From contig JACPSR010000142.1 in NCBI GenBank assembly GCA_016193175.1, positions 54,332 through 118,331 on the forward strand: DNA of 64,000 bases, given 5' to 3'. The position numbers were made by a program, and so were the translations under genes. The stretch comes from Candidatus Omnitrophota bacterium (lineage in GTDB: Bacteria > Omnitrophota > Gorgyraeia > Aquiviventales > Aquiviventaceae). The notes below the pieces were generated by a model. That model did no database searches. It saw only the letters and a list, made by a program, of their open reading frames with translations, and was not told the DNA's origin. This document shows, piece by piece, positions 1 through 53,288 of this stretch; position 1 is the first letter of the stretch, and every line of letters starts with the position of its first letter.

Positions 1-4
1 GCGG

Positions 5-988
5 ATGGCGCCGCAGCGCATCCTCGAGCTGTATGAGCGGATGTGGCGCATCCGGGTGGTGGAGGAGCGCATCAAAGATGAGTACGCCAGCCGTCGCATC
101 CGCGGGCCGGTCCATCTGAGCATCGGTCAGGAAGCGATTGCGGTGGGGGTGCTGTCTCCTTGCCGCCAAGCCGATGTCTGCTTGAGCACGCACCGCAACC
201 ACGCGCACTATCTGGCGAAAGGGGGAGGTCTGACGGGCATGGTGCATGAGCTGTACGGGTTGCCGAGCGGCTCGTGCAAAGGCTATGGCGGATCGATGCA
301 CCTGTTTGATCGGCAGGCCAACGTTCTGCTGTCGAGCGCCGTCGTGGCGGGGTCGGTGCCGATCGCAGCCGGGATCGCCTTTGCGCTGAAGCGGGATGGC
401 ACCGATGGTGTGTGCATCAGCTTCGTGGGGGATGGCGGGACGGATGAAGGGGTGTTCTACGAAACGCTCAATCTCGCGGCACTGCTCAAACTGCCCGTGT
501 TCTTCGTCGTGGAGAATAACGGCGTGTCCACGCTCACGCCCTTGGCGAAGCGGCAGGCGGTGCCTGACGTCGTATCCAAAGCCGAACGGTTCGGGGTGCA
601 GGGCATGAGGGTGGATGGGAACGACGCCGTCGAGGTCGCTGCGGCGTCGCAGCAGATCCTGGAGTGCATCCGGCGCAGCGGGGAGCCGTTGTTGCTGGAA
701 GCGGTCACCTATCGATTGTGCGCGCACGTCGGCCCGGCGGTCTACACCAGCGGCATCGGGGCGGATGAAGAGCTGTTGACGCACCTGGAGCAGGAGCCAT
801 TGAAAGCCTTCAAAGCCAGGATCCGGAGCGACTACCCTGAGCTCATCGAGGCCTGCGCGAAGCGAGAGCAAGCCGTGTCAGAGGAAGTCCATCAGGTGTT
901 CGAAGAGGCCAAGCGCCGGTTTGACGAGGAAGCGGTGCGGGTCGGATTGCCCCCGCCGCCTCCCCCGCCGGATCCTCGCCGGGTGTAA
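5..988 (+). CDS. ThDP-dependent 2-oxoacid dehydrogenase E1 component, alpha subunit (pyruvate/acetoin dehydrogenase E1-alpha family)
   Basis: 327-aa ORF. N-terminus LELYERMWRIRVVEERI and ThDP block GDGGTDEGVFYETLNLAALLKLPVFFVVENNG are typical of E1-alpha. A matching E1-beta gene follows. C-terminal poly-Pro tail. Confidence 0.8.
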   Translation: MAPQRILELYERMWRIRVVEERIKDEYASRRIRGPVHLSIGQEAIAVGVLSPCRQADVCLSTHRNHAHYLAKGGGLTGMVHELYGLPSGSCKGYGGSMHLFDRQANVLLSSAVVAGSVPIAAGIAFALKRDGTDGVCISFVGDGGTDEGVFYETLNLAALLKLPVFFVVENNGVSTLTPLAKRQAVPDVVSKAERFGVQGMRVDGNDAVEVAAASQQILECIRRSGEPLLLEAVTYRLCAHVGPAVYTSGIGADEELLTHLEQEPLKAFKARIRSDYPELIEACAKREQAVSEEVHQVFEEAKRRFDEEAVRVGLPPPPPPPDPRRV

Positions 989-1008
989 CGCATGGGAGGC
1001 GATGCCGT

Positions 1009-1154
1009 GATCCCACGCCCTGCGACGGGCTGCCGCAGGCAGCCCCTGCAACGCGAGCAAGACGGACGGACATGGTGAGGCAAGCGTTCTTCAGTCTAGG
1101 TGGTGTTGCAGCGCCCCGCCCAAGGGCGGGGCAGCCGCAGGGCGTGGGATGATC
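1009..1154 (+). repeat. Palindromic junction element, copy 1 (146 bp)
   Basis: Left arm GATCCCACGCCCTG 1009-1022 and right arm CAGGGCGTGGGATGATC 1138-1154 (13-bp inverted repeat). Hairpins GGGCTGCC-GCA-GGCAGCCC 1027-1045 and CCCCGCCC-AA-GGGCGGGG 1114-1131. Inner stem CTGCAAC/GTTGCAG 1046-1052/1105-1111. The ATG of the next CDS (1149) lies in the right arm. Confidence 0.85.
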
Positions 1155-2162
1155 GCTGCGCAGCAACGCGACACCGTCGTGCTGACCTTTGGCGAGGCCC
1201 TGGCCCGCGCGACGACGCAGGCGATGGAACAGGACGAACGCGTCGTGATGTATGGCGAGGGGATCAACGATCCCGGCGGGTTCTTCGGGTCGACCGTCGG
1301 GGTGAGGGACCGCTTCTCCGAAGCGAGGTGTTTCGACGTGCCGAATTCAGAGGAAGCGTTGATGGGGTTCGGGATCGGAGCCGGCCTCATGGGGTATCGG
1401 CCGATCTTCGTCAACCTTCGCGTCGAGTTTCTGATGTTGGCTATGAATCAGCTCGTCAATCACGCGGCGCGATTACCAACGATGTCCGGCTATCAATGCA
1501 CGATCCCGATGACCGTCAGGGCCATTATCGGCAAGTCGTGGGGACAAGCCGCGCAGCATTCCAGCGCCCTGCACTCGCTGTTTGCGAACATCCCCGGTCT
1601 GCAGGTCGTCGTGCCATCGAATGTCCAGGATGCCCCAGGGTTGCTCCTGGCCTCCATCCAGTCCGATAGACCGACGGTGTTCATTGAGCTCAAATCGCTG
1701 TACGACCTGAAAGCTCCGGTGATGGTGCCGGTGGAGCCGCTTCCATTGGGGCAGGCTCAGGTCGTCCGCCCCGGCGCCGATCTGACCTGTGTGGCCATCT
1801 CCGAGATGGTGGGGTTCGCCGAGCGCGTCGCCCAGCGCCTGGCTCCTCTGGGCATCGAAGCGGAGGTGCTTGATCTGAGGACCCTGGCTCCCTTGGATGC
1901 CGAGGCGATTCTCGCGTCGGTGAAGAGGACGCGACGGGTGGCGGTCTTCGACATCGGGTGGGAGCCGTTCGGCCTGGCAGCCGAAGTCGCCCGGGTGGTC
2001 AGCACCAGCGATCAGTTTCGTCTCGCCGGCCCGCTCCTGAGCGTTGCCCGAGCGCACGAGCACACCCCGGCGAGTTGTTTTTTGGAATACCGCCACTATC
2101 CCGGGGAAGACGAGACGGTGGCGAGGATCCGCGCGCTCTTTTCACGGAGTGATGCCTCATGA
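1149..2162 (+). CDS. ThDP-dependent 2-oxoacid dehydrogenase E1 component, beta subunit (transketolase-like pyrimidine-binding and C-terminal domains)
   Basis: 337-aa ORF. LTFGEALARATTQAMEQDERVVMYGEGI and FDVPNSEEALMGFGIGAGLMGYRPI are typical E1-beta blocks. Pairs with the upstream alpha subunit. Confidence 0.85.
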   Translation: MIAAQQRDTVVLTFGEALARATTQAMEQDERVVMYGEGINDPGGFFGSTVGVRDRFSEARCFDVPNSEEALMGFGIGAGLMGYRPIFVNLRVEFLMLAMNQLVNHAARLPTMSGYQCTIPMTVRAIIGKSWGQAAQHSSALHSLFANIPGLQVVVPSNVQDAPGLLLASIQSDRPTVFIELKSLYDLKAPVMVPVEPLPLGQAQVVRPGADLTCVAISEMVGFAERVAQRLAPLGIEAEVLDLRTLAPLDAEAILASVKRTRRVAVFDIGWEPFGLAAEVARVVSTSDQFRLAGPLLSVARAHEHTPASCFLEYRHYPGEDETVARIRALFSRSDAS

Positions 2163-10141: not shown

Positions 10142-11394
10142 GCGCTGAGATGGAGGAGGTGGTGGTGGAGCCGCCTGTCGCGTGTGTCGTATGCGGCGGA
10201 ACGGCGGTGGAGTTGGTGCTCGACCTCGGGTGCACCGCACTGGCGAACAAGTTCCTTGCAACCTCTGAACTGGGGCGGCCGGAGCCGGTGTACCCGCTGC
10301 GCCTTGGGTATTGCCGCGAGTGCACGCATGTGCAGCTCCTCGACCGCGTGCCGCCCTCGGCCATGTTCACCGATTACCTCTATATGTCCTCCGCCTCTGA
10401 CACGCTGAAGGCGCACCTGTGGTCGCTGAGCGACGTCGTCCAGCGGCGCGCCCGCCTGACGGCGAGCGATTTGGTGATCGACATCGGTTGCAACGACGGC
10501 ACGCTGCTGGACGGGTTTGCGCGCTACGGCGTGCGGCTGCTGGGCGTCGATCCGGCGAAAAACCTGGCCGAGATAACCCGGTCCAAGCGCGTCGAGCGCT
10601 ACATCGGTTTTTTCAACGCGGAGACGGCCTGCGAGATTGTGCAGCGGTGGGGTCGGGCCTCGGCGGTGACCGCGACGAACACCTTCCCGCACATCCCTAA
10701 GCTGGAGGATTTTCTGACTGGCATCGAGCACGTGCTGGCGCCGGGCGGAGTGTTCGTGATCGAGGCACACTACCTGATGGATCTCCTGGACCGCTGCGCG
10801 TTCGATACGGTCTATCACGAGCATGTCTCGTACTGGGCGCTGGCACCCATGCAGCGGCTGTTTGCGCGCCATGGGATGCAGGTGGTGGACGTGGAGCGGT
10901 TGCCGATTCATCACGGGCAGCTGCGGGTGTTCGTGCAGCGGCGGGGTGAGGGAACGGTGCAGCCACGTGTGGCCGAGTTGCTGGACCTGGAGCGAGTCCG
11001 AGGGCTGAACCGGTTTGAAACGTACCAGCGCTTTGCTGGACAGGCCCAACGGATCAAGCGCGAGTTGCGCCAGACGCTGAGTCGATTGGCGGCGCAGGGC
11101 AAGCGCCTCGCCGGCTACGGGGCGCCCGCAAAAGCCAGCACGCTGCTGGGGTTTGTCGGGATCGGTCCGGAGAGGCTTGCGTACATCGCGGATAACAACC
11201 CTCTGAAACAAGGACGCTACATACCAGGCGTCCGCATCCCCGTCGTTCCGCCGGCACGGATTCTGGAGGACCCGCCGGATTATCTGTTGCTGTTGGCATG
11301 GAACTTTACAGACGAGATCATGCGGCAACAGGCGGAGTACCGAACGCGGGGCGGGAAGTTTATCATCCCCGTTCCTGAAGTGCAGTACCTGTAG
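10138..11394 (+). CDS. SAM-dependent sugar C-methyltransferase (TylCIII-like: Zn-ribbon, class I MT and C-terminal C-MT domains)
   Basis: Cys pairs CVVCGG ... CRECTHVQ, SAM motif VIDIGCNDG, and a long C-terminal domain as in NDP-hexose C-methyltransferases. Confidence 0.7.
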   Translation: MSAEMEEVVVEPPVACVVCGGTAVELVLDLGCTALANKFLATSELGRPEPVYPLRLGYCRECTHVQLLDRVPPSAMFTDYLYMSSASDTLKAHLWSLSDVVQRRARLTASDLVIDIGCNDGTLLDGFARYGVRLLGVDPAKNLAEITRSKRVERYIGFFNAETACEIVQRWGRASAVTATNTFPHIPKLEDFLTGIEHVLAPGGVFVIEAHYLMDLLDRCAFDTVYHEHVSYWALAPMQRLFARHGMQVVDVERLPIHHGQLRVFVQRRGEGTVQPRVAELLDLERVRGLNRFETYQRFAGQAQRIKRELRQTLSRLAAQGKRLAGYGAPAKASTLLGFVGIGPERLAYIADNNPLKQGRYIPGVRIPVVPPARILEDPPDYLLLLAWNFTDEIMRQQAEYRTRGGKFIIPVPEVQYL

Positions 11395-11418
11395 AGGGAG
11401 TGCGACATCGAGATCGAG

Positions 11419-12918
11419 ATGGAACGTGCAGACCACCGAGGTGAAGGTACCCTCTCGCCCCGCGAGGTTGAGATGGTCAATGCCTACGGTCCCTATCATC
11501 ATGCCGTCTGGTCTGCTGGGGGTGTGGCGATCAGCCATGAAGAACGGCTCAGCGGCCGCGGGGAGTTCTTGGTCGATCGGATTCGCGAATCCCTCCTGAA
11601 GCGTTTCACACTCGATGAGATCAAGACGTTTTCCATTCTGGACGTGGGATGCTATGACGGGTGGATCCTGCAGCAACTCAGCGAGTTACCGTTTGCCCGG
11701 TTGGTCGGCATCGAGCCGCGAGAGAAAAATCTCATGAAAGGGCAGAAGGTGAGGGAACTCCTGCGCATTCCCTCGCGCGTTGAGTTCAAAGTCGGCGACC
11801 TTGATTCGCTGGGCGAGGAGACGTTCGACGTGGTCATCTGCGCTGGGTTGCTTCATCATGTCGAATCTACGCCGGCGGCGCTGCGCCGCCTGAGGGCTGT
11901 CTGCCGGCGGTTCCTGTTTATCGAGACGATCTGTCTCTCATCCCGGCATATCACGAAGGCGCTCCAGCGCGAGATTGAGATGAAGGATGTCGTGTACTTT
12001 TATAAGCGCAAAATCTGCGGGGTGACAGGCCAGAAATGGGAGTCATCCTATTCCGATGGGTCAACTACCAGGCTCTGTGTCGTGAACATCCCGTCCTTGG
12101 AATCGCTGACGATGTATCTGGATCTCTGTGGATTTGAAGGGGTGGACATCGTGACGAATCCCGCGGAGTACCGTGCAGCCGTCTGGAGGGATCAACGGGC
12201 CTGCAACGCCGTCTGTCTTTCCGCGGTCATCCGGGCCGAACAGCCGGAAGCCGTTTCTGAGGAAGAGTCCTGGGTGCAGGGGTATGAGAGGGGGCTGGCC
12301 AGAACGATCCTGAAGAAAGCGTACGTGCAACCGCTCTATGAGATCTGGTGTCTGCGAAAGAAACGGGTCCGTCTTCCCGTGTCCTGTTGGACCACCTGGC
12401 TGTATCTCCGTTCGCCAAACCGGTGGGCGGGCCTGTGTCATTCCCTCACGGCCATCTGGTTCAAGGATCGGTATGCGCTGGAGATCGTCAAAAATCTGAG
12501 GTTTAACCCGGAAGACAAGCTCCGTCTGGAATATGGCAAAGTCCTCTGCGACGAGGGCGATACCGAGGGGGCCATCGCGGTTCTGAAGGCCGTGGTGCAG
12601 ACGCTCAACGCGGATTGGTGGTCGGTGTATCGGTCCTTTGCGCTGCTCTCGGACGCCTACGTGCGGATCGGATCGCACGAAGAAGCACAGCGGTATGCCT
12701 CGTTGTGCGCCACCTGCAACCCGAAGTTTCCGCACATCGCTCAGGCGGCACGGGGATTTCCCGAGAGCGACCGACAGGACCACGATGATGGTGCGATGTC
12801 GATGATCCCACGCCCTGCTTCGGTCCCGCCAACGGCGGGACCGTGTTTGCCCACAGCGCATCAACCCATCTTGCAAACACACGCTGCCTGCGGCAGCGGG
12901 AAGCGGGGCGTGGGATGA
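11419..12918 (+). CDS. Class I SAM-dependent methyltransferase with C-terminal helical-repeat (TPR-like) region
   Basis: ILDVGCYDGWILQQL and FDVVICAGLLHHV motifs. The last ~38 codons (12805-12918) are encoded by junction element copy 2, so the true C-terminus is uncertain. An alternative start is at 11473. Confidence 0.6.
   Translation: MERADHRGEGTLSPREVEMVNAYGPYHHAVWSAGGVAISHEERLSGRGEFLVDRIRESLLKRFTLDEIKTFSILDVGCYDGWILQQLSELPFARLVGIEPREKNLMKGQKVRELLRIPSRVEFKVGDLDSLGEETFDVVICAGLLHHVESTPAALRRLRAVCRRFLFIETICLSSRHITKALQREIEMKDVVYFYKRKICGVTGQKWESSYSDGSTTRLCVVNIPSLESLTMYLDLCGFEGVDIVTNPAEYRAAVWRDQRACNAVCLSAVIRAEQPEAVSEEESWVQGYERGLARTILKKAYVQPLYEIWCLRKKRVRLPVSCWTTWLYLRSPNRWAGLCHSLTAIWFKDRYALEIVKNLRFNPEDKLRLEYGKVLCDEGDTEGAIAVLKAVVQTLNADWWSVYRSFALLSDAYVRIGSHEEAQRYASLCATCNPKFPHIAQAARGFPESDRQDHDDGAMSMIPRPASVPPTAGPCLPTAHQPILQTHAACGSGKRGVG
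12802..12918 (+). repeat. Palindromic junction element, copy 2 (117 bp, right arm slightly degenerate)
   Basis: Left arm ATGATCCCACGCCCTG 12802-12817 and right arm GGGGCGTGGGATGA 12905-12918. Hairpins GGTCCCGCC-AAC-GGCGGGACC 12822-12842 and CGCTGCC-TGC-GGCAGCG 12882-12898. Inner stem GTGTTTGC/GCAAACAC 12843-12850/12873-12880. Confidence 0.85.
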
Positions 12919-12934
12919 GCTGCGAAGGGATCAT

Positions 12935-13837
12935 GTGACGATGCGGGTGGTGGTGACCGGATCAGAGAGCTTCATCGGTAGGGAATTGCGACGGCATGGC
13001 CAAGCGAAACAGATCGAATGGGTCGGCCTGGATACGGCCCCCGCTGACGATCCGGGGCACATCCAGATCGACATTCGCTCTCCGGAGCTTGCGGATGTCA
13101 TCCCAGAGGGGCTGGACGCGGTGGTGCACCTCGCGGCCATTTCGCGTGATCAAGATTGTCGTGCCAACCCGCAGCAGGCATTTGATGTCAACGTGTCAGG
13201 GACCCTGAACGTCATACGGGCCGCACGGGAGCGAAACGCCCGCCAATTCATCTTCGCCTCGAGTGAATGGGTGTATGGGGACGTGAGCTCCGATGCCGTC
13301 CAGACGGAAGATCAGCCCATTGCGGTGACGGGGATCCGGTCCGAGTATGCACTGTCCAAACTAGTCGGGGAGCAAGTGCTCCGCATGGCCTTCGCCCAGG
13401 GTCTCTGTCCGGTCACCGTGCTGCGGTTCGGGATTGTGTACGGCCCAAGGCCTTCCAACTGGTCGGCCGTGGAGACGCTCTTTCACGCGGTACGGACACA
13501 ACAGACCGTGACGGTGGGAAGCCTGGAGACGGCAAGACGATTCATCCATGTCTCCGACATCGCTGAGGGGATTGTGAGCGCGATCGGACAGGACGGATTC
13601 CAGATCTTCAATCTCAGCGGGGATCGGCTCATCACCCTGCGTGAAGTAATCGAGCAGAGTGCGTTGTTGCTTGATCGACGCCCCACCGTGGTAGAGCGGG
13701 CGCCGGAAGGCGTGAGCATCCGCAATCCTGATAACCGAAAGGCGAAGCACCTGCTTGGCTGGGAACCCGCCACGGATCTCCCACATGGATTGCGATCCCT
13801 GGACGAGACGCTGCAGACGACCGGTGCGCATGAGTGA
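12935..13837 (+). CDS. NAD-dependent sugar epimerase/dehydratase (SDR)
   Basis: RVVVTGSESFIGREL Rossmann motif and catalytic YALSK. GTG start at 12935 or ATG at 12941. Confidence 0.8.
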   Translation: MTMRVVVTGSESFIGRELRRHGQAKQIEWVGLDTAPADDPGHIQIDIRSPELADVIPEGLDAVVHLAAISRDQDCRANPQQAFDVNVSGTLNVIRAARERNARQFIFASSEWVYGDVSSDAVQTEDQPIAVTGIRSEYALSKLVGEQVLRMAFAQGLCPVTVLRFGIVYGPRPSNWSAVETLFHAVRTQQTVTVGSLETARRFIHVSDIAEGIVSAIGQDGFQIFNLSGDRLITLREVIEQSALLLDRRPTVVERAPEGVSIRNPDNRKAKHLLGWEPATDLPHGLRSLDETLQTTGAHE

Positions 13838-13843
13838 CCACGC

Positions 13844-14005
13844 GATCCCACGCCCTGGCACCGGTAGCGCCTCAATGACCACGAGTGAATACGCGGACAC
13901 CGCAGGCTGGTTCGGCACTGCCGAGGCCGGCCAGCAGATGAGACCAACCGGAGGAGCCGGCCAGGGCCACGCGATGCGTGGCCCGTGCCAGGGCGTGGGA
14001 TGATC
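13844..14005 (+). repeat. Palindromic junction element, copy 3 (162 bp, longest)
   Basis: Arms extend to 15 bp: CCCACGCCCTGGCAC 13847-13861 and GTGCCAGGGCGTGGG 13985-13999. Hairpin GGGCCACGC-GAT-GCGTGGCCC 13964-13984. The downstream ATG at 14000 lies in the right arm. Confidence 0.85.
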
Positions 14006-14845
14006 ACGACGCCTAAGGCCACGCGGCCGCCTCACAAGGGCTCCGTGCGGGGCCATCCCATCGAGGTTCGCAAATCCGTGTTGTCCATCCTCTACAAGAG
14101 CAAGGCCTCGCACCTGGGACCCTCCATGTCGGCGGTCGAGATGTTGCTTGCGATCTACAATTCCGTGGACCTTGATGCCATCCGTGCCAAAGATGTGCTC
14201 CGGCCTCGGGTGATCATCAGTAAAGGCCATTGCGCGGCGGCGACCTACAGCGTGATGGCCCACGTCGGGCTCATGGATTTTCGGACCCTCGAGACCTACC
14301 ATCAAGACGATTCCGCGCTGGCCGGGCATGTCAGCCATGCCGTGGAGTTCGTCGAACACTCGACGGGAGCGCTCGGCCATGGGCTGCCGGTCGCGTGTGG
14401 ATGCGCCATGGGGCTTCGGGCTCGTGGTGCCCCACAGACCCCCGTCTTTGCGCTCCTGGGTGATGGAGAACTCCAAGAGGGGGCGGTGTGGGAAGCCATC
14501 ATGTTCGCCAAGCACCACCAGCTGGCCAACCTCATCCTCCTGATCGATGACAACCGGATCAGTAGCATCACCAACACCGCAGAGGTCATCAACCTGCTGC
14601 CCCTGAAGGACCGCTTCGCCGGGTTCGGGCTTCGGGTCTATGAAGTCGATGGCCATGATGTCGAAGCGATCATTGAGGCGATTGATGACATCAAGAGGAT
14701 TCGGGAAGTCAGCGTGATTATTTGCCGGACGACGAAGGGCTACGGGGTCCCCTTCGCTGAAGGCGAGCCGATCTGGCATTACCGGACCCTGAACGAGCAG
14801 GACTACCGCGCTGCGATGGCGTATCTCGAACAGGGGCAGATCTGA
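14000..14845 (+). CDS. Transketolase, N-terminal (ThDP-binding) subunit
   Basis: SKASHLGPSMSAVEMLLAIY, GALGHGLPVACG and ThDP motif LLGDGELQEGAVWEA. Start is the ATG within the repeat arm. Confidence 0.85.
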   Translation: MITTPKATRPPHKGSVRGHPIEVRKSVLSILYKSKASHLGPSMSAVEMLLAIYNSVDLDAIRAKDVLRPRVIISKGHCAAATYSVMAHVGLMDFRTLETYHQDDSALAGHVSHAVEFVEHSTGALGHGLPVACGCAMGLRARGAPQTPVFALLGDGELQEGAVWEAIMFAKHHQLANLILLIDDNRISSITNTAEVINLLPLKDRFAGFGLRVYEVDGHDVEAIIEAIDDIKRIREVSVIICRTTKGYGVPFAEGEPIWHYRTLNEQDYRAAMAYLEQGQI

Positions 14846-15762
14846 TGCGAGGCCGCATCATGAACGCCGTCTTCGCGCGGATGCAGGCTGATGAGAACGT
14901 CTTCTTCCTCACGGCCGACATGGGAATTAATTTGGTCGAGAAGATTCAACAGGTGTTTCCATCCCGGTATCTCAATGTGGGCATTGCCGAACAGAACTTG
15001 ATCGGCATCTGTGCCGGGCTGTGCAATCTGGGCTTCCGTCCGGTGGCCTATACGATCTCGCAGTTCATCAGCCATCGCTGCTATGAGCAAATTCGCAACG
15101 ACCTGAAGCTTCACGACTATCCTATTACGCTGCTGGGAACCTCTGCGGGGTTTGATAACGCTCCGCTGGGCCCGACCCACCATATCGTGGACGACTGGGG
15201 CGCGGTCCGCACCATCCCGGGGATTGACATCTACTGTCCGTCCAGCGTCAGTTATGCGGACACGCTCGTGGACAAGATCTTGGCGCAGCCTCGTCCGGCG
15301 TATGTGCGGATTCCAAAGGGAGCCTTTGAACAACCCGCCTCGCGAGACGATACCCTGTATCTCGAGGGGGCACGCGGGGGCCCCTTGCTGATCTCGTATG
15401 GGTCAACCGTACAGACGTGCTTAGCGCTTCAGGCGCGGCATGCGGAGGTATCAGTCCTGGTGTGTAATCGGTTGCGTCCACTGCAGGCCGATCTCGTGCG
15501 GGCCGCGCTGCAGCGGCATCCCAGCGCATTCGTGGTCGAGGATCATTTCCCCAGCAGCGGCCTGTACAACATGCTATGTCAGTTCTGCATGGAGCATCGC
15601 CTCGCCTGCCAGCTGAGCAGTTTGGGCCCGCGGGAGGAGTATCACCTGAAGGTCGGGGCCTCGGCAGGCTACTATCATCGGCTCTATGGTTTTGACGAAC
15701 AAGGGATCGAGCGCGCGTTGTGGGGCCAATCACATGCTCTCATTGATTCTCCCAACCTATAA
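14845..15762 (+). CDS. Transketolase, C-terminal (pyrimidine-binding) subunit
   Basis: FFLTADMG, NVGIAEQNLIGICAGL and GPTHH motifs. TGATG junction with the N-terminal subunit. Confidence 0.85.
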   Translation: MRGRIMNAVFARMQADENVFFLTADMGINLVEKIQQVFPSRYLNVGIAEQNLIGICAGLCNLGFRPVAYTISQFISHRCYEQIRNDLKLHDYPITLLGTSAGFDNAPLGPTHHIVDDWGAVRTIPGIDIYCPSSVSYADTLVDKILAQPRPAYVRIPKGAFEQPASRDDTLYLEGARGGPLLISYGSTVQTCLALQARHAEVSVLVCNRLRPLQADLVRAALQRHPSAFVVEDHFPSSGLYNMLCQFCMEHRLACQLSSLGPREEYHLKVGASAGYYHRLYGFDEQGIERALWGQSHALIDSPNL

Positions 15763-16831
15763 TCGACCCGGGTTGCTTCGCCGGGTCCTGAGGTATTACG
15801 AGGCATGCCAATTTCCGCATCGGGTGCTCGTGGCGGACTCGAGTGACGCGCCTGCGGCGGAGGCGAACCGGCAGATCGTGGAGGCCGTCTCCCGCGCCAT
15901 GCCGGTCGAGTACCGGCGGTATGATTCCGCTCTTGAGGTGCCGATGAAACTGGCGGAAGCGCTCGAAGGGATTCAGTCGACGTACGCGGTGATCGGATCG
16001 GATGACGATTTTTTTGTTCCGAGTGCACTAGAACGAGGGGTGGCGTTTCTGGAATCGCATCCCGACTACGCCCTGGCGCATGGTGAGTCGGCGTATTTCG
16101 TCTTAGAGTCTGACAGGATCGTTTCCGGCCGGTGTGTGGGGGTGGGGCGATATCTGCAACGCACGATCGATCACGCGAGCGGCTCGGAGCGATTGGCGGC
16201 GCATCTCGCGCAATACACCACCACCTTTTATTCAGTCCATCGGACGGAGCAACTGCGCAGGAATTGGCGTCGAGTGGCTGCGCTGCCTCTCGATCATTTG
16301 TTCGACGAGTTGCTCCCGTCATGCCTGTCGCTCATCGAAGGCAAGAGTCAGAAACTCGACGAACTCTACATGGTGAGGCAAATCCACTCTGCGCAAACAG
16401 CACGGACACGGGGTTCCAGAGGCCTCGGTTGGGTGATGGGTCAACGCTGGTCAGAACACTACGCACGATTTCAGGATCTGCTGGCTGAGGAGCTGGTTGG
16501 CCAGGACAGGATCACCATGGAGGCCGCGAGGGAAGTTGCCAAACAGGCGTTCCGGCCCTATGTAGCCCGATATGTGGCCAAAGAAGTGGGGAAGTCGCGT
16601 CAGTTGCACGATAGCGTCGCCATCAGGATCGGGGCGCGAGTGCGCAGGGTGGCACGAGGGATGCCTCTGCTGCGTTGGGGCTGGCACCTGGCACGCGCGA
16701 TCAGGCCGATGTCGCGCACAGCCATCTCGCTTGAGGCGTTGCTTCGCCAGACCTCGCGCTATCACGAAGGATTTATGCCGATCTATCGAGCGGTGACGGC
16801 GCAGAACGGTCACGAGGTCGGTGCGTCATGA
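15734..16831 (+). CDS. Glycosyltransferase family 2-like protein (paralog 1 of a tandem pair)
   Basis: LILPTYNRPGLLRRVLRYY N-terminus (GT-A style) and VADSSD. C-terminal SRYHEGFMPIYRAVT is shared with the next gene. Confidence 0.5.
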   Translation: MLSLILPTYNRPGLLRRVLRYYEACQFPHRVLVADSSDAPAAEANRQIVEAVSRAMPVEYRRYDSALEVPMKLAEALEGIQSTYAVIGSDDDFFVPSALERGVAFLESHPDYALAHGESAYFVLESDRIVSGRCVGVGRYLQRTIDHASGSERLAAHLAQYTTTFYSVHRTEQLRRNWRRVAALPLDHLFDELLPSCLSLIEGKSQKLDELYMVRQIHSAQTARTRGSRGLGWVMGQRWSEHYARFQDLLAEELVGQDRITMEAAREVAKQAFRPYVARYVAKEVGKSRQLHDSVAIRIGARVRRVARGMPLLRWGWHLARAIRPMSRTAISLEALLRQTSRYHEGFMPIYRAVTAQNGHEVGAS

Positions 16832-16941
16832 TCCGCCCTAGCAGTCCCGCCGAAGGCGGGGTCGCCCGACGACCACAGGATTGCAACAGCGGGTGCGACG
16901 GCTCCACCACGGGTGGAGCCCTGCCAGGGCGTGGGATGATC
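16828..16941 (+). repeat. Palindromic junction element, copy 4 (114 bp, left arm carries a 2-nt deletion)
   Basis: Left arm ATGATCCGCCCT 16828-16839 (CA missing) and right arm CAGGGCGTGGGATGATC 16925-16941. Hairpins CCCGCC-GAA-GGCGGG 16846-16860 and GGCTCCACC-ACG-GGTGGAGCC 16900-16920. Upstream stop TGA 16829-16831 lies in the left arm; downstream ATG 16936 lies in the right arm. Confidence 0.85.
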
Positions 16942-18096
16942 ACCCTGTGCGTTCCCACCTACAATCGTCCCGCGTTCATCGAGCGGTTGCTGCGCTACTA
17001 CGCAGCCACCAGCTCTCGGCACTGGATCTTCATCGGCGATTCCAGCGATCCCAATGATGCCAAGCGCACCCAGCGGGCGGTCGCGTCGTGGGGGGGGCGG
17101 CTCCAGGTGCGCTACGAGGCGTGCGCGGGCTTAAGTTCCTGTGCCGCCTTGGAACATGTCAGTCGCCTCATCATGACCCCCTATTGCGCCTTTTTAGGCG
17201 ATGACGATTTCCTCTGCACGAATGGGATCGAGCAGTGCCTGGAGTTTCTGGAGCGCCATCCCAGCTACGGGGCGGCTCATGGAAAAGGCCTCCTGTTCCA
17301 AACCGAAACCGGAGCTGCGTACGGACCGATTGGGATGGTCAGGCCGTATCCGCAGGTCGTGCTGAATGCGGATTCTGCTGCCGGGCGACTGCGAGACGTA
17401 TTGACCGCACGCGTCGGCGGGCTGCTGTATTCGGTGCATCGGACTCACACGTGGCGGGCCATGTTCGCGGGGATCGGGCGGCTCTCAGGCACGACGAATA
17501 CGAACATCTTCAAAGATGAGCTCATCGCGGTTTGCCTCTCCGCCATTCGCAACACGGTGCAGGAACTCGACTGTTTGTACCTGATTCGTCACACACATGA
17601 GGCGATCTATAAGTACCCCACTATCTACGATTGGGTGACAGATCCGATGTGGTTTCCGTCGTTCCAGGCATTCCGTGATCGCCTGGTCACGGAACTGATG
17701 GAGCAGGACCGTCTGCATGAGCCAGACGCGCAGGCCGTCTTCAAGGATGTGTTCTGGTCCTTTCTGGCTCATGTCCTCATGAACGGTTGGCAGCGATCCC
17801 GGCAACCAGCGCGAGTGAAACCAGTGAGTCGGCTGCAGGTTCTGGCCAAGCGCGTGCCGGGCCTACAGCGCGGGTGGCAAAAGGTGTTGGCCATTCGGCA
17901 GCGGTGGCAAGACGAACTGTCGCTGCCGGCGCTGCTTCACCCCTCCTCACCGTACCATGACGATTTCATGCCGATTTATGAGGCGGTGACCCACGCGCCC
18001 GCGGACGCACTCGTGGCGGTGGCGTCCGAGCGCCACCTGGTGTCCAGCAAGGGCGCGTTGGATGCTGGTGCGGTGCTGAGAGAGCCCCATGGCTGA
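16936..18096 (+). CDS. Glycosyltransferase family 2-like protein (paralog 2 of a tandem pair)
   Basis: MITLCVPTYNRPAFIERLLRYY, IGDSSD and C-terminal SPYHDDFMPIYEAVT parallel the preceding gene. The open frame extends to the ATG at 16828 through the repeat. Confidence 0.5.
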   Translation: MITLCVPTYNRPAFIERLLRYYAATSSRHWIFIGDSSDPNDAKRTQRAVASWGGRLQVRYEACAGLSSCAALEHVSRLIMTPYCAFLGDDDFLCTNGIEQCLEFLERHPSYGAAHGKGLLFQTETGAAYGPIGMVRPYPQVVLNADSAAGRLRDVLTARVGGLLYSVHRTHTWRAMFAGIGRLSGTTNTNIFKDELIAVCLSAIRNTVQELDCLYLIRHTHEAIYKYPTIYDWVTDPMWFPSFQAFRDRLVTELMEQDRLHEPDAQAVFKDVFWSFLAHVLMNGWQRSRQPARVKPVSRLQVLAKRVPGLQRGWQKVLAIRQRWQDELSLPALLHPSSPYHDDFMPIYEAVTHAPADALVAVASERHLVSSKGALDAGAVLREPHG

Positions 18097-18271
18097 ACGG
18101 GATCAGACGCGGGTGTTGATTGTTGGGTGCCGACAAGTGGGCAGTCGGCATCTGCAGGCCGTCGCGACGTTGCCACACGTTGCTGAGATTGACGTCATCG
18201 ATCCGCGCGCTGCGGCGACGCTGACGAGGCACACAGAATCGGTGTTTGGCTACGAAGGAGGAACTGGATGA
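18089..18271 (+). pseudogene. N-terminal remnant (about 40 aa) of a Rossmann oxidoreductase, paralogous to the 5' end of CDS 21227-22231
   Basis: MAERDQTRVLIVGCRQVGSRHLQAVATLPHVAEIDVIDPR versus MAESDNARVLIVGCGELGSRHLQAVATLPDVAEIDVVDSR. Both have the same ATGGCTGA junction. The 60-codon ORF then diverges and stops. Confidence 0.65.
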
Positions 18272-20342: not shown

Positions 20343-21234
20343 GGCAGCCGAAGTTCGTATCGCCGCACCATCCATCGACGCTGGAGAACTCTATGATGTG
20401 GCGGCGGCTGGTGGGGAGTTCTGGTTCTACCAAGATCTCCGAGACAAGAGCCCTCGGTGGTATGATGAATGCTATTTCAACCCAGACTGCGTGTTGCTGT
20501 TTCCGGAGACCCGGCAGGTCTACTGGTTTGATCTCGACCACGTCTCGGTGGGGGCGGAGGCGACCGGTACCCGGCGGCACGTCTTGGGGAACCTCTGGAG
20601 GAAAAAATTCGCCTTCGCCTCCGATGGTAATCGACTGAGTATCCTGCCCTGTGCAGTGACAGGCCTGTGGAGGGGCAGGCCCACGGCGATGCGGCCGCAG
20701 GAGACAGAAGGCATCGCCTACGTGGTCGGCGATCGCTATCGGAGAGTATGCGAGATCAGGGCCGATGGCACGATGGATCCTCAAGAGCGACGCGAGCTCG
20801 ATGAGGCCTGGCGTCAGCACCGGAAGTTGAAGGTGGGGGTACCACTGGGCCGGAGCGTGCTCATCTATGGGATCCGGCTGGCGTTCCAGCAAAAGGGGGT
20901 CTACAGTTTTGCTTCGAAAACCGTGGTCATCCCATCCCCGCAGGCGCGGGCGTTCTCATGGGAGCAGGCATCACTTGGGAACATCTGCGTGGGATCGGAT
21001 GGCTCCTGTTCCATCTACCGTGAACAGACCTCGCGGCCGGGTCTCCTGCAGGTCCTCGCAACCTATGCTCCCACGGTGCTGCAACGGGCTAGCGGCATGT
21101 TGAACCGATCCCCGGATGGGTTCAAGGAATGGGTGCGGTCGCTGGCGCGGCCGATGCTTCGGTGTCTGCTCACATTTGAAGTCGACCATGCGCGGTGCCC
21201 GTTCACGATCTTTGTGAGGGAGGCCGATGGCTGA
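20332..21234 (+). CDS. Hypothetical protein (300 aa), no domain recognised
   Basis: Long ORF with balanced, protein-like composition. Its stop lies in an ATGGCTGA junction with the next gene. It sits between the two remnant-bearing junctions. Confidence 0.5.
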   Translation: MTPEAAEVRIAAPSIDAGELYDVAAAGGEFWFYQDLRDKSPRWYDECYFNPDCVLLFPETRQVYWFDLDHVSVGAEATGTRRHVLGNLWRKKFAFASDGNRLSILPCAVTGLWRGRPTAMRPQETEGIAYVVGDRYRRVCEIRADGTMDPQERRELDEAWRQHRKLKVGVPLGRSVLIYGIRLAFQQKGVYSFASKTVVIPSPQARAFSWEQASLGNICVGSDGSCSIYREQTSRPGLLQVLATYAPTVLQRASGMLNRSPDGFKEWVRSLARPMLRCLLTFEVDHARCPFTIFVREADG

Positions 21235-40316: not shown

Positions 40317-40943
40317 ATGGGGAACGCGCACAGACCGGACATCCGTCGAGCCGTGTTTCTCGATCGGGATGGCACCATTGCCCAGTACCGGGAGTACTGT
40401 TGTCGCCCGCAGGATTTTCGATTGCTCCCAGGGGTGGGCCACGCCATTCGGACATTGAATCACGCGGGGCTGGCGGTGATCGTCATGACCAACCAATCGG
40501 CGATTGCGCGAGGCTGGTTGACGGGGGACGTCTTGGAGCAGATTCACCGAAAAATGCGCCGTGCCCTCAGTCGCGTGGGGGCGCGGATCGACGCCATCTA
40601 CGTCTGTCCGCACCATCCGGACGACGGATGTGCGTGTCGAAAACCTGGGATCGCGATGCTCCAGCAGGCTGCAAAGGACTTTGAGCTGTCCTTGGCGTCC
40701 TCCTATGTGGTGGGAGACCGGATGCTGGATGTGCTCTCGGGGCGCGCCGCGGGAAGTCAGACTATCCTTGTCCGCTCAGGCCACAGACTGGAACCGACCA
40801 ACGGCGTTACGCCTGACCACGAGGCGCAGGACCTGAGCGAGGCCGTGGCGTGGATCCTTCAACAGGAGGGGCTGCAAGCGGGACGGGGCAGGCCTCTTGC
40901 CGCGGCGCGAGGTCCGAGCGACCATGCGGGAGTGCAGAGATGA
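40317..40943 (+). CDS. gmhB: D-glycero-D-manno-heptose 1,7-bisphosphate phosphatase (HAD-IIIA)
   Basis: AVFLDRDGTI, VMTNQSAIARG and Zn-binding CPHHPDDGCACRKP. Confidence 0.85.
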   Translation: MGNAHRPDIRRAVFLDRDGTIAQYREYCCRPQDFRLLPGVGHAIRTLNHAGLAVIVMTNQSAIARGWLTGDVLEQIHRKMRRALSRVGARIDAIYVCPHHPDDGCACRKPGIAMLQQAAKDFELSLASSYVVGDRMLDVLSGRAAGSQTILVRSGHRLEPTNGVTPDHEAQDLSEAVAWILQQEGLQAGRGRPLAAARGPSDHAGVQR

Positions 40944-44728: not shown

Positions 44729-46284
44729 CCGAACGACATCAGTTTCGGGTATTACTGGCCTATCCGAATTTGAGCATGATGCTCACCCCATCCTATGCAG
44801 TGGGATTGTTTACCGCTATTCTGAAAGCCCAGGGGTATGAGATCGAGCTGTTTGACTGCACCCCCTATCTGGCGACGTACGAATACCTGGGGGAGCCGTT
44901 GCCCGTCACACGAGCCAACAAACTCCTCAACAGCCGGCGGTTTGACGCCTTCACCCTCTGGGGCGAGCCAAAAACACATCTCCTGGATGACTTTGTCAAG
45001 ACCATCGAAGCGTTCAAGCCGCACGTCGTCATCTTTTCAACCCTGGTGGAAGACACCTGGCCCCAGGCGAAAGACCTCCTGAAGCTCCTGGCCCACTACC
45101 CCTCCATCAAGACGCTGGTCGGTGGAGTCTTCTCCACGATGGCCCCCGAGGTGATCGCAGATCCTCACACGCAGTGTGTCGGGCTTGGGGAGGGTGAGGA
45201 GGTCATCGTGGAGTTCTGCGAGTGCGTCCGCCACGGCGTGGCTCCGACCCACATCCAGGGGACCTGGGCGAAGGATGTTGATGGGACGGTGATCCACAAC
45301 CCGGCGCGCCCGCTTGTGGATATCAACAAGGTGGTGCCGGATTTCTCACTGTTCGACGAGCGGCGGTTTCTCCGGCCGTTGGGAGCACGGATCTGGAAGG
45401 CGATCCCGCTGGAAACCTACCGCGGCTGCCCGTATACCTGCACCTTCTGCAATTCCCCCAGACAGGTCCTCCTCGCGAAAGAACGGCAGCAGGGATTCTT
45501 CCTGCGACGCAAGACCATGGCGACACTCCGTCATGAGATGGAGGTCATGATCGAGCGCTACCGACCGGAGTTCTTTTACATCAACGATGACGCGTTCATG
45601 GCCCGGCCGAAGCAGGAGATCGCCGAGTTCGTCGCCATGTACAAGGACTTCAAGATTCCGTTTTGGTTTCAAACGCGATTCGAGGACGTCGATGCCGAGA
45701 AGCTGGACTGGGTGTCGAGCGTGGGGTGCTACCGGATCTCGTTTGGTCTTGAGCATGGCAACGAGCACTACCGGCAGGAGAAACTCAGGCGGAAGATGAC
45801 GAACGAGTTCATCCTGCAGCAGTCAAAGATTGTCACGGCATCAGGCATTCCGTATACGCTGAATGTCCTCGTCGGCATGCCCTATGAGACCCGGGAGTTG
45901 CTCTTCGACAGCATTCGGCTCTGCCGCGGGATTGGCATGTTTGATTCCCTGAGCGTGAACGTCTTCGTGCCGTACCACGGTACACCCCTGCGGGAGATGG
46001 CGATTCAAGAAGGGTGGTTAGATCCCGAGGCTCAGACCACCTCGGTCATCTCGAAGTCTCTCCTGACAATGCCTGAGCCCTATCTACAAGCCGATGAGAT
46101 CCTTGCGCTGCAGCGGGTCTTTCCCCTGTACGTGCGGTTGCCCGAATCACGATACCAGGAGGTTCGGATCGCGGAGCAGGACGATGACGAAGGGAAGGCG
46201 GTCTTTGAAGCCCTGTCAAAGGAGTTCTATCAAATGGTGTATGGGAAAGATGAAGCCGAACGCATGCTCACGTATGCTGGCTAG
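44725..46284 (+). CDS. B12-binding domain radical SAM enzyme (class B)
   Basis: N-terminal B12-like domain (FKPHVVIFSTL, LVGGVF) and cluster motif YRGCPYTCTFCNSP. Confidence 0.8.
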   Translation: MTERHQFRVLLAYPNLSMMLTPSYAVGLFTAILKAQGYEIELFDCTPYLATYEYLGEPLPVTRANKLLNSRRFDAFTLWGEPKTHLLDDFVKTIEAFKPHVVIFSTLVEDTWPQAKDLLKLLAHYPSIKTLVGGVFSTMAPEVIADPHTQCVGLGEGEEVIVEFCECVRHGVAPTHIQGTWAKDVDGTVIHNPARPLVDINKVVPDFSLFDERRFLRPLGARIWKAIPLETYRGCPYTCTFCNSPRQVLLAKERQQGFFLRRKTMATLRHEMEVMIERYRPEFFYINDDAFMARPKQEIAEFVAMYKDFKIPFWFQTRFEDVDAEKLDWVSSVGCYRISFGLEHGNEHYRQEKLRRKMTNEFILQQSKIVTASGIPYTLNVLVGMPYETRELLFDSIRLCRGIGMFDSLSVNVFVPYHGTPLREMAIQEGWLDPEAQTTSVISKSLLTMPEPYLQADEILALQRVFPLYVRLPESRYQEVRIAEQDDDEGKAVFEALSKEFYQMVYGKDEAERMLTYAG

Positions 46285-46903
46285 AGGGCAGTCGTTCCTC
46301 CAGCAATATCGCGACGAGGCCGCCCAGATTGCCCAGGCGCTGGACGTCGAGACGATGGATCACATGGTGGGGCGGCTTGTCCGGTTGCGCGATGAAGGCG
46401 GTCGTCTCTTCCTCTGCGGCGTGGGCGGGAGTGCCGGAAACTGCAGCCATGCGGTGAACGATTTTCGCAAGCTCGCCGGGATCGAAGCGTACAGTCCGGT
46501 GGATAATGTCTCAGAGCTGACAGCGCGAACCAACGACGAGGGCTGGGAGACGGTGTTTGCGGCATGGCTGAAGGTGAGCCGGGCCAGTTCGCGTGACGTG
46601 CTGTTCATCCTGTCAGTCGGTGGGGGCAGCCGAGAGCGCAACATCAGCGCCAACCTGGTGGCCGCTATTGATGAGGCCAAGGCCCGGGGCATGGATGTGT
46701 TGGGGGTCGTGGGACGGGACGGCGGGTACACGAAGCGACGAGGCGATCTGGTGCTGGTCATTCCGACGGTCAACGAGCAATCGGTCACGCCGCACACCGA
46801 GGCGTTCCAGGCCGTCGTGTGGCATGCCCTCGTGTCCGATCCACGCCTGATGGTGTGTGGCAACAAGTGGGAGACGCAGACCCTCCATGAGTCGAAGGTG
46901 TAA
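46274..46903 (+). CDS. gmhA: SIS-domain sedoheptulose 7-phosphate isomerase
   Basis: RLFLCGVGGSAGNCSHAVNDFRK and VLFILSVGGGS are typical of phosphoheptose isomerase. Start chosen inside the longer ORF at 46094. Confidence 0.8.
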   Translation: MLARGQSFLQQYRDEAAQIAQALDVETMDHMVGRLVRLRDEGGRLFLCGVGGSAGNCSHAVNDFRKLAGIEAYSPVDNVSELTARTNDEGWETVFAAWLKVSRASSRDVLFILSVGGGSRERNISANLVAAIDEAKARGMDVLGVVGRDGGYTKRRGDLVLVIPTVNEQSVTPHTEAFQAVVWHALVSDPRLMVCGNKWETQTLHESKV

Positions 46904-52529: not shown

Positions 52530-53288
52530 ATGAGAACCTTAACCGGGATCTTTTTGGACACCGGAAGTCTGGAAGAGATTCGGAAGTACCATGCGTTGGG
52601 GATCATCCGGGGTGTGACGACCAACCCGACGATCCTGGCGAAAGAGGGACTGAGGGGAGGATGGTTGGGGATTGAGGAGCGCTGCCGGCAGATCGCGCAG
52701 CTCGTCAGCCCGCTGCCCGTCTCGGTGGAAGTCACCACGAACGACCCAGAAGGGATGCTCGAGCAGGCCCAGAGGTTTGTCAGCTGGGCGCCCAACATCA
52801 ACGTCAAGATTCCGATTCACGACGTGGAGGGCGGCACGGAGAACTTGCGGCTCGTGCATGAGCTGGAGACGCAACACGACATTCGCGTCAACGTGACCGC
52901 CATGATGAGCGCGCAGCAGTGTCTGCTGGCGGCGATGGCGGGTGCGACCTATGTCTCCTTGTTCGGGGGGCGGGTCAACAACATGGGCTACAACGCGTGC
53001 CAGGAGATCCGGCGCCTCCGGGGTTTGTTGGATGCCTTTGGCAGCCCCGCCAAGATGATCGTCGGATCCACCCGCGAGGTCCTGAACATCGTGGAGTGGT
53101 TTGAAGCGGGCGCGGATATTGTTACGACGGTCCCGCCGTTGCTGGAAGGGATGCTTGTGCATCCCTACAGCAAGGAGACGGTCCAGCAGTTCCTCCGGGA
53201 CGCCGCGAAGCTGGAGCAGGTTGACGAGCGTCGACAGCCGGAGCGTATCTCGAAACCGGGTCCTCGTGTTGCGCGCGTGTTGGCCTGA
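52530..53288 (+). CDS. Transaldolase family protein (fructose-6-phosphate aldolase/TalC-like)
   Basis: IFLDTGSLEEIRKYHALGIIRGVTTNPTIL and Schiff-base lysine context NINVKIP. GAAAGGTGGA precedes the ATG, RBS-like. Confidence 0.85.
   Translation: MRTLTGIFLDTGSLEEIRKYHALGIIRGVTTNPTILAKEGLRGGWLGIEERCRQIAQLVSPLPVSVEVTTNDPEGMLEQAQRFVSWAPNINVKIPIHDVEGGTENLRLVHELETQHDIRVNVTAMMSAQQCLLAAMAGATYVSLFGGRVNNMGYNACQEIRRLRGLLDAFGSPAKMIVGSTREVLNIVEWFEAGADIVTTVPPLLEGMLVHPYSKETVQQFLRDAAKLEQVDERRQPERISKPGPRVARVLA

Follow-up and report, generated by a model that had tools for sequence, protein, structure and literature searches.

A split transketolase with a changed substrate pocket in an Omnitrophota surface-glycan operon: a candidate for ketol transfer to nucleotide-linked sugars

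We analyzed a 64-kb stretch of DNA from a Candidatus Omnitrophota bacterium (here called the window), in which two adjacent genes of a surface-glycan operon, TK-A and TK-B, encode the halves of a split transketolase. By sequence, the two products together are a thiamine diphosphate (ThDP) enzyme with the transketolase fold, in which the catalytic residues are retained and the substrate pocket is changed. We propose, with a probability of roughly 0.5, that this enzyme adds a two-carbon (C2) ketol unit to the carbonyl of a nucleotide-linked surface-glycan sugar, and, at the same even odds, that it was co-opted from central metabolism for the tailoring of nucleotide sugars. The pair belongs to a large, widespread, and uncharacterized subfamily of split transketolases that is found in glycan loci and is defined by its pocket signature.

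RESULTS

Two coupled genes encode an enzyme with the transketolase fold

A preliminary description of this DNA had reported a two-gene transketolase with coupled reading frames, and this proved to be real. The Pfam matches (Table 1) place the PP domain on one polypeptide and the Pyr and C-terminal domains on the other, and these come from adjacent genes that are translationally coupled, with the TK-A stop and the TK-B start overlapping as TGATG at positions 14843 to 14847. An in-frame GTG at 13985 is an alternative to the TK-A start codon listed in the table. The closest solved structure is that of the split transketolase of Carboxydothermus hydrogenoformans (6YAK/6YAJ; E values of 1.6e-44 and 3.3e-21). 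As in other split transketolases, TK-A and TK-B presumably assemble into an α2β2 tetramer.

Each subunit scored far below every NCBIfam transketolase equivalog cutoff. Against NF004559, for example, which has a cutoff of 488 bits, TK-A scored 198.8 bits and TK-B scored 78.2 bits, the models being full length, so that each half scores only part. TK-B scored alike against the DXS and transketolase models of NCBIfam (1e-24 versus 3.9e-22), and its matches in the Protein Data Bank at an E value of ≤1e-8 were split transketolase and DXS chains only. The enzyme does not qualify as a DXS, because it is split and scored 87 bits against a cutoff of 395 bits. The label "transketolase" is right at the level of the fold. 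The preliminary label of a housekeeping pentose-phosphate enzyme is wrong, given the scores below the equivalog cutoffs and the replacement of key residues in the substrate pocket.

The catalytic core is intact and the substrate pocket is not

We aligned TK-A, TK-B, and 82 homologs with TktA and Dxs of E. coli MG1655, and residues are numbered here as in TktA. TK-A keeps His26, His66, His100, and His261, and the ThDP/Mg2+ motif GDG...N (Asp155 and Asn185) is present in TK-A and in 82 of 82 homologs. TK-B keeps Arg358, the cofactor-activating Glu411, Phe437, and His473. The catalytic set of a canonical transketolase, Glu411 together with the five histidines, is complete. Since the residues that serve dihydroxyethyl-ThDP are intact, the enzyme should clearly still be able to form a ThDP-bound C2 carbanion.

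In canonical transketolases, such as those of yeast and E. coli, the clamp on the substrate phosphate consists of Arg358, Ser385, His461, and Arg520, and the 2-hydroxyl of the acceptor is recognized by Asp469. Only Arg358 of this clamp is kept in TK-B. The E. coli segment THDSIGLGEDGPTHQ has become TSAGFDNAPLGPTHH, in which His461 is replaced by Ser and Asp469, the reader of the 2-hydroxyl, is replaced by a Leu that sits within the motif NAPLGPTHH. The E. coli motif LSRQN has become RIPKG, with Lys in place of Arg520, and the loop that carries Ser385, GGSADLAPSNLT, has become LTADMGIN. The residues of E. coli Dxs that bind glyceraldehyde 3-phosphate (Arg420, Asp427, and Arg478) correspond to Ser, Leu, and Lys in TK-B. 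The altered part of the enzyme is the seat of the acceptor and of the donor tail.

Protein engineering has touched the same positions. S385, D469, and R520 line the entrance of E. coli transketolase, and the S385Y/D469T/R520Q variant is opened to nonphosphorylated, nonhydroxylated acceptors (PMC10787763). An H100L substitution lets pyruvate into the enzyme (PMC10787763).

We then carried out an exhaustive phmmer search of 1.84 billion representatives with TK-B as the query, which returned 235 proteins with an E value of ≤1e-30 and 4053 with an E value of ≤1e-10. Among the 138 full-length best matches, His473 was present in all 138 and Arg358 in 128, while His461 was present in none, Asp469 in 12, and Arg520 in 25. 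These counts argue that the pocket change is a stable family signature and not decay. We found no description of the TK-A/TK-B family in the searchable literature on transketolases of O-antigen, capsule, or heptose clusters.

The transketolase genes end a nucleotide-sugar cassette

Five independent metagenomic contigs (L001, L002, L090, L091, and L092), with TK-A identities of 58 to 73%, all share the gene order of window positions 5495 to 15762: a short-chain dehydrogenase (SDR), an RmlC-like cupin, a GHMP kinase, a dehydratase-like SDR, a C-methyltransferase, a variable set, a further SDR, TK-A, and TK-B. The variable part consists of methyltransferases and radical-SAM or PhyH enzymes. Read gene by gene, all five contigs have a homolog of the window's SDR3 directly upstream of the transketolase pair. 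A nucleotidyltransferase-HAD fusion heads the cassette in some of the five; in L002 it is accompanied there by an SIS gene, and L002 is the only one of the five cassettes to have one. The operon ends at TK-B in L091 and continues into Wzm/Wzt export genes in L002. Because the kinase is HddA-like, the dehydratase RmlB-like, and SDR3 Rmd-like, the cassette looks like one for a GDP-(6-deoxy)heptose-type sugar with C- and O-methylation.

When one genome per species was scanned with a degenerate pattern, 80 loci from many phyla were added, for a total of 85 transketolase loci, and their contexts were counted by tblastn with the window's own proteins. An extended SDR lay within 10 kb in 71 of the 85 loci and directly upstream of the transketolase in 33. 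Other neighbors included a nucleotidyltransferase (42 loci), a GHMP kinase (41 loci), and a DegT aminotransferase (38 loci). A GmhA-like SIS gene lay within 10 kb in 13 of the 85 loci, and a transaldolase gene within that distance in 0 of 85. Of the 48 loci flanked on both sides by 6 kb or more, 16 had SDRs but neither a kinase nor an isomerase.

Two of these 16 loci were scanned with Pfam. The Paenibacillus chibensis locus (L042) runs DegT, DegT, nucleotidyltransferase, 4,6-dehydratase, SDR, TK-A, TK-B, TylF; a Bacteroidales locus (L030) has a 4,6-dehydratase and, after a gap, a C-methyltransferase, an SDR, TK-A, TK-B, and a GT2 glycosyltransferase. Both are ordinary NDP-4-keto-6-deoxyhexose tailoring layouts without heptose genes. 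The combination expected of the C-branching class, a 4,6-dehydratase and an adjacent ketoreductase in a glycan or sugar-tailoring cluster, was found. The common denominator of the transketolase family appears to be nucleotide-sugar keto chemistry and not sedoheptulose-7-phosphate (S7P).

In about nine loci, both His461 and Arg520 are retained in TK-B (L036, L056, L057, L067, L072, L074 to L076, and L083). These loci have no glycan-type neighbors except for a lone dehydrogenase in two of them, and they branch apart in a rough neighbor-joining tree.

We also observed a second class of split transketolases in glycan loci, which accounts for 32 of the 82 homologs (L010 to L015, L022, L028, L035, L037 to L040, L046, L048 to L053, L069, L071, L081, and others). 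In this class, His26 of TK-A is replaced by Arg and His100 by Ile, while in TK-B, His461 is replaced by Gly, Asp469 by Ser, and Arg520 by Ala or Gly. The change of His100 to Ile recalls the engineered, pyruvate-accepting H100L enzyme. The operons contain, in variable order, a GHMP kinase, TK-A, TK-B, DegT, a CBS-nucleotidyltransferase, SIS, an SDR, HAD, and a B12-radical-SAM enzyme, and the hosts include Pseudomonas, Legionella, Burkholderiaceae, Methylococcales, and a Methanoperedenaceae archaeon.

A proposed ketol transfer and its alternatives

In the reaction that we propose, a C2 ketol (glycolaldehyde) unit might come from hydroxypyruvate or from a ketose that is held in the absence of the normal phosphate clamp; the retention of His26, His100, His261, and His473 suggests that the donor is hydroxylated. 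If the acceptor is a 4-keto group made by the dehydratase, the outcome would be a tertiary alcohol that bears a hydroxyacetyl branch; if it is an aldehyde at a chain end, the chain would be extended. Leu in place of Asp469 would suit a nonhydroxylated α-carbon, such as C6 of a 6-deoxyheptose. The Rmd-like SDR3 is a candidate partner that would either reduce the carbonyl afterwards or generate a carbonyl beforehand, a partnership that would parallel the one between YerE and YerF in the yersiniose pathway. A higher-carbon sugar, branched or extended, would result, and the neighboring TIGR04440-type glycosyltransferases would install it.

The preliminary description had offered two roles for the transketolase, the supply of S7P to GmhA and the transfer of a ketol unit to a nucleotide-linked keto sugar. 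We favor the second, because the acceptor pocket has been remodeled while the catalytic machinery is intact, because the pair ends an NDP-sugar tailoring cassette, right after an SDR, and because relatives sit in NDP-hexose loci that lack heptose genes. The loci that keep His461 and Arg520 also argue for it, being free of glycan neighbors and on a separate branch, as do two precedents that are discussed below, the miharamycin/amipurimycin proposal and C2 branching by E1 α/β enzymes.

Several points weigh against ketol transfer to a nucleotide-linked sugar. With Arg358 still present and Lys at position 520, the pocket may accommodate an anionic group, perhaps a phosphate, and sugar phosphates may therefore be substrates. 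Use of a ketone or a nucleotide sugar as the acceptor is not known for any transketolase. A function ahead of nucleotide activation would also be in keeping with the GHMP kinase found in 41 of the 85 loci. SDR3 has a 4-ketoreductase as its best solved relative and, were it to act first, would remove the proposed 4-keto acceptor. The context counts rest on the window's own proteins as queries, so divergent GmhA or transaldolase (TAL) genes could have been missed. Finally, the miharamycin precedent is itself a proposal only (PMC12247030).

The other role once suggested for the transketolase, that of a canonical split enzyme making S7P from pentose phosphates and so feeding GmhA, HddA, GmhB, and HddC for heptose synthesis, seems improbable to us. 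It would explain why the operon has an HddA-like kinase, a GmhB-like phosphatase, a weakly GmhA-like SIS protein, and sugar-1-phosphate nucleotidyltransferases, why a GHMP kinase accompanies nearly half of the transketolase loci, why an SIS gene and a nucleotidyltransferase-HAD fusion head the L002 cassette, and why Arg358 is conserved. It fits poorly with the loss of His461 (missing from all 138 of the nearest relatives), Asp469, and the Ser385 loop, with the change of Arg520, and with scores of both subunits far below the transketolase equivalog cutoffs. Nor does it fit the scarcity of SIS genes and the lack of TAL genes within 10 kb across the 85 loci, the 16 well-flanked loci that have neither kinase nor isomerase, or the position of the window's own SIS gene, which lies 30 kb off in another module. 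Pseudomonas and Paenibacillus, moreover, have ordinary tkt genes and yet carry relatives of the split pair.

Somewhat less remote, though still unlikely, is chain building at the level of free sugars or sugar phosphates, before activation. Here the ketol unit would be joined to an unusual aldehyde, for example a deoxy or nonphosphorylated one, and the resulting nonstandard ketose would be isomerized, phosphorylated at C1 by the GHMP kinase, and nucleotide activated. The transaldolase LmbR starts the lincomycin octose, and this route can be likened to that of LmbR. Aldehydes are the native acceptor class of transketolases, a pocket with the D469L and H461S changes would fit a noncanonical one, and the association with a GHMP kinase, an HAD phosphatase, and a nucleotidyltransferase in many loci is what a sugar-bisphosphate route would look like. 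However, the closest cassettes, all but L002, lack a ketose-to-aldose isomerase to serve a C1 kinase, some relatives have only a nucleotidyltransferase, a dehydratase, and an SDR at their loci, with no kinase, and the constant neighbor of the pair is an SDR of the NDP-sugar type rather than the kinase. The last alternative, which we regard as quite unlikely, is acetyl-type branching of the DXS or E1 kind, in which pyruvate would be decarboxylated and a hydroxyethyl/acetyl unit passed to a sugar carbonyl, as by YerE or AviB1/B2. TK-B does score as well against DXS as against transketolase, its RIPKG motif resembles the PRG motif of DXS, and the sister class, with Arg at position 26 and Ile at position 100, brings the pyruvate-accepting H100L enzyme to mind. 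But the window's own TK-A and TK-B keep His26, His100, His261, and His473, which hold the C1 hydroxyl of the donor, the DXS-defining arginines and aspartate are replaced, and acetyl-type chemistry is already covered in this operon by an E1 α/β pair.

Two further candidates were rejected. Cleavage of a 6-keto-heptose side chain by the transketolase was judged unlikely on mechanism, as C5 would carry the ring oxygen and have no free hydroxyl. A split enzyme of the phosphonopyruvate or sulfopyruvate decarboxylase type was ruled out because its ThDP fold is different.

Beyond the ketol transfer itself, we tentatively suggest, at somewhat less than even odds, a broader picture: transketolase may have been repurposed repeatedly, in bacterial and archaeal phyla, to make C-C bonds on nucleotide sugars, the product here may be a C-branched or chain-extended, C-methylated 6-deoxyheptose (C9 to C10), and the sister class (His26Arg, His100Ile) may use another donor.

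The transaldolase belongs to a different module

The preliminary description had also pointed to a transaldolase-family gene in the operon and had paired it with the transketolase. The gene is real (Table 1), although its match to TIGR00875 (3e-44; 151 bits) falls short of the cutoff of 245.95 bits. In an alignment with E. coli TalB and FsaA, the product keeps the Schiff-base lysine (Lys93, in INVKIP), Asp10, a TTNP motif, the phosphate-binding Arg, and Ser-x-Arg. It has Phe where TalB has Phe178 and FSA has Tyr131, and it has Glu where TalB has Glu96 and FSA has Gln59, the equivalence of the TalB Glu having been read by eye because MAFFT put TalB two columns off there. Since TalB-type catalytic and phosphate-site residues are kept, it is probably a genuine sugar-phosphate transaldolase and not an FSA.

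Homologs of this transaldolase, 75 to 89% identical, occur across many Omnitrophota. So does the module around it (window positions 40317 to 60017), which comprises an HAD protein, an unknown protein, a Gfo oxidoreductase, a methyltransferase, a B12-radical-SAM enzyme, SIS, SGNH, a carbamoyltransferase, the transaldolase, a methyltransferase, an unknown protein, an HpcH/HpaI aldolase, SDRs, a KdsB-like cytidylyltransferase, and a 2-hydroxyacid dehydrogenase. On three long contigs (L087, L088, and L089), the transaldolase lies in the same module, with a GT2 gene at the end and, in one of them, the HAD phosphatase before Gfo; the B12-radical-SAM, SGNH, carbamoyltransferase, and SDR genes vary among the three. 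A housekeeping transaldolase present by accident was ruled out because this glycan-module context is conserved too. The pyruvate aldolase and the CMP-transferase of the module suggest a route other than KdsA or NeuB to a CMP-activated 3-deoxy-2-ulosonic acid.

The transketolase and the transaldolase are 37 kb apart, in different conserved modules, and because they are never neighbors in the 85 loci counted, we conclude that the one is no partner of the other. The earlier suggestion of S7P supply to GmhA divides: it is not supported for the transketolase and is plausible for the transaldolase alone, which keeps the residues required and has an SIS gene only a few genes upstream, both in the window and in other Omnitrophota. 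The transaldolase could plausibly feed a ketose phosphate, whether S7P or a higher one like the product of LmbR, to the neighboring SIS isomerase.

The surrounding operon

By Pfam and NCBIfam scans of about 55 open reading frames (ORFs), the window is one single-strand glycan operon, which bears out the earlier claim that the transketolase is embedded in such an operon. The G+C content is 60 to 67%, all credible genes are on the plus strand, and the proteins have exact or near-exact matches in metagenome-assembled genomes of Candidatus Omnitrophica/Omnitrophota. Stop/start overlaps are common among the roughly 55 genes (positions 1 to 64000), and the GC skew is above 0 in each 2-kb step over the 64 kb; for a codirectional glycan locus, this is unusually long. 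The operon encodes glycosyltransferases, many SDR epimerases, dehydratases, and reductases, C- and O-methyltransferases, two B12-radical-SAM enzymes, and sugar-1-phosphate nucleotidyltransferases, together with a carbamoyltransferase, an HpcH aldolase, a KdsB-like cytidylyltransferase, and RmlD. A nonulosonic-acid set is also present, with NeuB, a NeuC-PglD fusion, a cytidylyltransferase, a CBS-nucleotidyltransferase, and a DegT aminotransferase.

Table 1. Coordinates of the features discussed, in window positions
Feature	Position	Strand	Remarks
E1 α (cut at the window edge) and E1 β, two-subunit ThDP enzyme	2..2162	+	PDH-E1-like, below equivalog cutoffs
SDR1	5495-6559	+	cassette member
RmlC-like cupin (epimerase)	6508-7065	+	cassette member
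HddA-like GHMP kinase	7058-8122	+	2e-41, below cutoff
RmlB-like 4,6-dehydratase SDR	8122-9093	+	cassette member
Weak SGNH ORF	9095-10141	+	
Sugar C-methyltransferase	10138-11394	+	Methyltransf_13/14 in the cassette type
Methyltransferase-TPR protein	11419-12918	+	
SDR3, extended short-chain dehydrogenase	12935..13837	+	best solved relatives GDP-6-deoxy-D-mannose reductase (Rmd; 6X3B, 1.3e-18; 2PK3)
Intergenic junction element ahead of TK-A	13842..14004	+	left arm GATCCCACGCCCTG, right arm CAGGGCGTGGGATGAT, inverted repeats
TK-A, ThDP-binding (PP) subunit, 281 aa from ATG	14000..14845	+	Transketolase_N (PF00456), 7.6e-33
TK-B, pyrimidine-binding and C-terminal-domain subunit, 305 aa	14845..15762	+	Transket_pyr, 3.7e-24; Transketolase_C, 6.2e-07
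GmhB-like HAD phosphatase	40317..40943	+	170 bits versus 178-bit cutoff
SIS_2 isomerase, weakly GmhA-like	46094..46903	+	60 bits versus 209-bit cutoff
Short-type transaldolase	52530..53288	+	TAL_FSA (PF00923), 4.7e-38
Repeated junction units	1007-1153, 12802-12919, 13842-14004, 16925-16940, 32011-32026, 35886-36003, 42604-42718		

Directly 3′ of TK-B lie two tandem TIGR04440 ("TIGR00180 family") glycosyltransferase genes (15686 to 18096), the second of which probably starts at the junction-element ATG at 16936. A weak homolog (about 31% identity) of the TIGR04440 glycosyltransferase is likewise found 3′ of the transketolase pair in L001 and L005. Between the second of these genes and a TylF methyltransferase gene is a fragment of about 110 nucleotides (18090 to 18200) with 79% identity to positions 21227 to 21340, the 5′ end of the gene at 21227 to 22231, which encodes a Rossmann N terminus (MAE.D..RVLIVGC...). 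The fragment looks like a truncated duplicate left by recombination.

The nonulosonic-acid genes, of the legionaminic/pseudaminic type, occupy positions 22216 to 38181. They encode Gfo oxidoreductases, a CMP-transferase, an SDR, NeuB, a NeuC-like 2-epimerase fused to a PglD-type acetyltransferase, a B12-radical-SAM enzyme, a GATase, a PtmE-like CBS-nucleotidyltransferase, a LegB-like SDR, and a DegT aminotransferase. NeuB genes adjoin the transketolase cassette in L001 and L090 as well.

At the start of the window, the E1 α/β pair is followed by a GT2 gene, and no E2 or E3 partner for it was found in the 64 kb. Such a pair accompanies split transketolases at four other loci (L017, L047, L058, and L059), from Nitrospira, Deltaproteobacteria, and Omnitrophota.

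A repeated junction element precedes TK-A

The preliminary description had the transketolase entered through the third copy of a junction element. The element is real, and the unit ahead of TK-A is the third in window order. Its 16-mer, CAGGGCGTGGGATGAT, has five exact copies in the window against 0 expected, and the ATG inside it is the start codon of the downstream gene; in the unit ahead of TK-A, the right arm carries the TK-A start. At five junctions, a reverse-complement arm lies about 100 to 150 nucleotides upstream, three of these being exact copies (that of TK-A included) and two near-copies. The units also contain an internal GC hairpin of 8 to 9 bp, the stem of which varies in sequence between copies while the pairing is kept. 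They look like elements of the MITE/REP type or like a device for translational coupling or occlusion, and pairing of the arms would bury the start codon.

DISCUSSION

If the broader picture of repeated repurposing holds, these transketolases would represent a third, very widespread family of ThDP enzymes for sugar branching, and the first to supply surface glycans with a hydroxylated C2 unit. YerE-type lyases and E1-type enzymes are established catalysts of ThDP-dependent sugar branching, whereas the same role for transketolases is only a proposal, made for a few Streptomyces clusters. The family spans Omnitrophota, Pseudomonas, Legionella, Paenibacillus, Bacteroidales, and Methanoperedenaceae, and it includes cultured, tractable hosts. 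Genes annotated as transketolases in O-antigen, capsule, and flagellin-glycosylation loci would become a testable prediction of higher-carbon or branched sugars. The family also points to natural enzymes for the reactions sought by engineering of E. coli transketolase, with nonphosphorylated acceptors and possibly ketones. For metabolic reconstructions of uncultured phyla it carries a warning, in that transketolases from glycan loci should not be counted as pentose-phosphate genes.

The window transaldolase, a class I aldolase, can be compared with short-type transaldolases and with LmbR, whose pathway likewise includes an isomerase, a phosphatase, and a nucleotidyltransferase. It differs from them in scoring below the TIGR00875 cutoff and in the other members of its module, among them an HpcH aldolase, a KdsB-like cytidylyltransferase, and a 2-hydroxyacid dehydrogenase.

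The function of TK-A and TK-B is probably best seen as a variant of ThDP-dependent formation of C-C bonds on sugars. With E. coli TktA and the C. hydrogenoformans split transketolase (6YAK/6YAJ), the pair shares the fold, the ThDP/Mg motif, Glu411, and the catalytic His26, His66, His100, His261, and His473, and with the latter enzyme it also shares the split architecture. Unlike canonical transketolases, it has lost His461, Asp469, and the Ser385 loop, has Lys for Arg520, and stands in a glycan context, not one of the pentose-phosphate pathway or of catabolism.

The nearest parallel, likened by description, is with the split-gene transketolases of miharamycin and amipurimycin biosynthesis, which have been proposed to transfer a hydroxyacetyl group to a keto sugar; 13 transketolases of Streptomyces gene clusters have been found in silico (PMC12247030). 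There, as here, a two-gene transketolase belongs to a sugar-tailoring set and has an oxidoreductase ahead of it. Those clusters, however, serve actinomycete secondary metabolism and a nucleoside sugar, whereas the window is an Omnitrophota surface-glycan operon with a GDP-heptose-like cassette. E1 α/β enzymes of the alpha-keto acid dehydrogenase-2 type (aldgarose, avilamycin, and KbDH of kibdelomycin) add C2 acetyl branches to keto sugars (PMC12247030). They too are two-subunit ThDP enzymes, with a homologous pair in the window operon itself, but they differ from TK-A and TK-B in belonging to the E1_dh family, in taking pyruvate as the donor, and in leaving an acetyl branch.

YerE and YerF of yersiniose A synthesis, and YerE-like lyases for branched sugars of lipopolysaccharide (LPS), resemble the window pair in combining a ThDP enzyme with an adjacent reductase in an O-antigen-type locus. 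They act on an NDP-4-keto-6-deoxy sugar, which a nucleotidyltransferase and a 4,6-dehydratase supply, and the L042 and L030 layouts look like the yersiniose pathway with the transketolase in the place of YerE and the SDR in that of YerF. Unlike the window pair, YerE is a single chain of the decarboxylase (acetolactate-synthase-like) ThDP superfamily and uses pyruvate as its donor, whereas TK-A and TK-B are split, have the transketolase fold, and retain a set of histidines that suggests a hydroxylated C2 donor.

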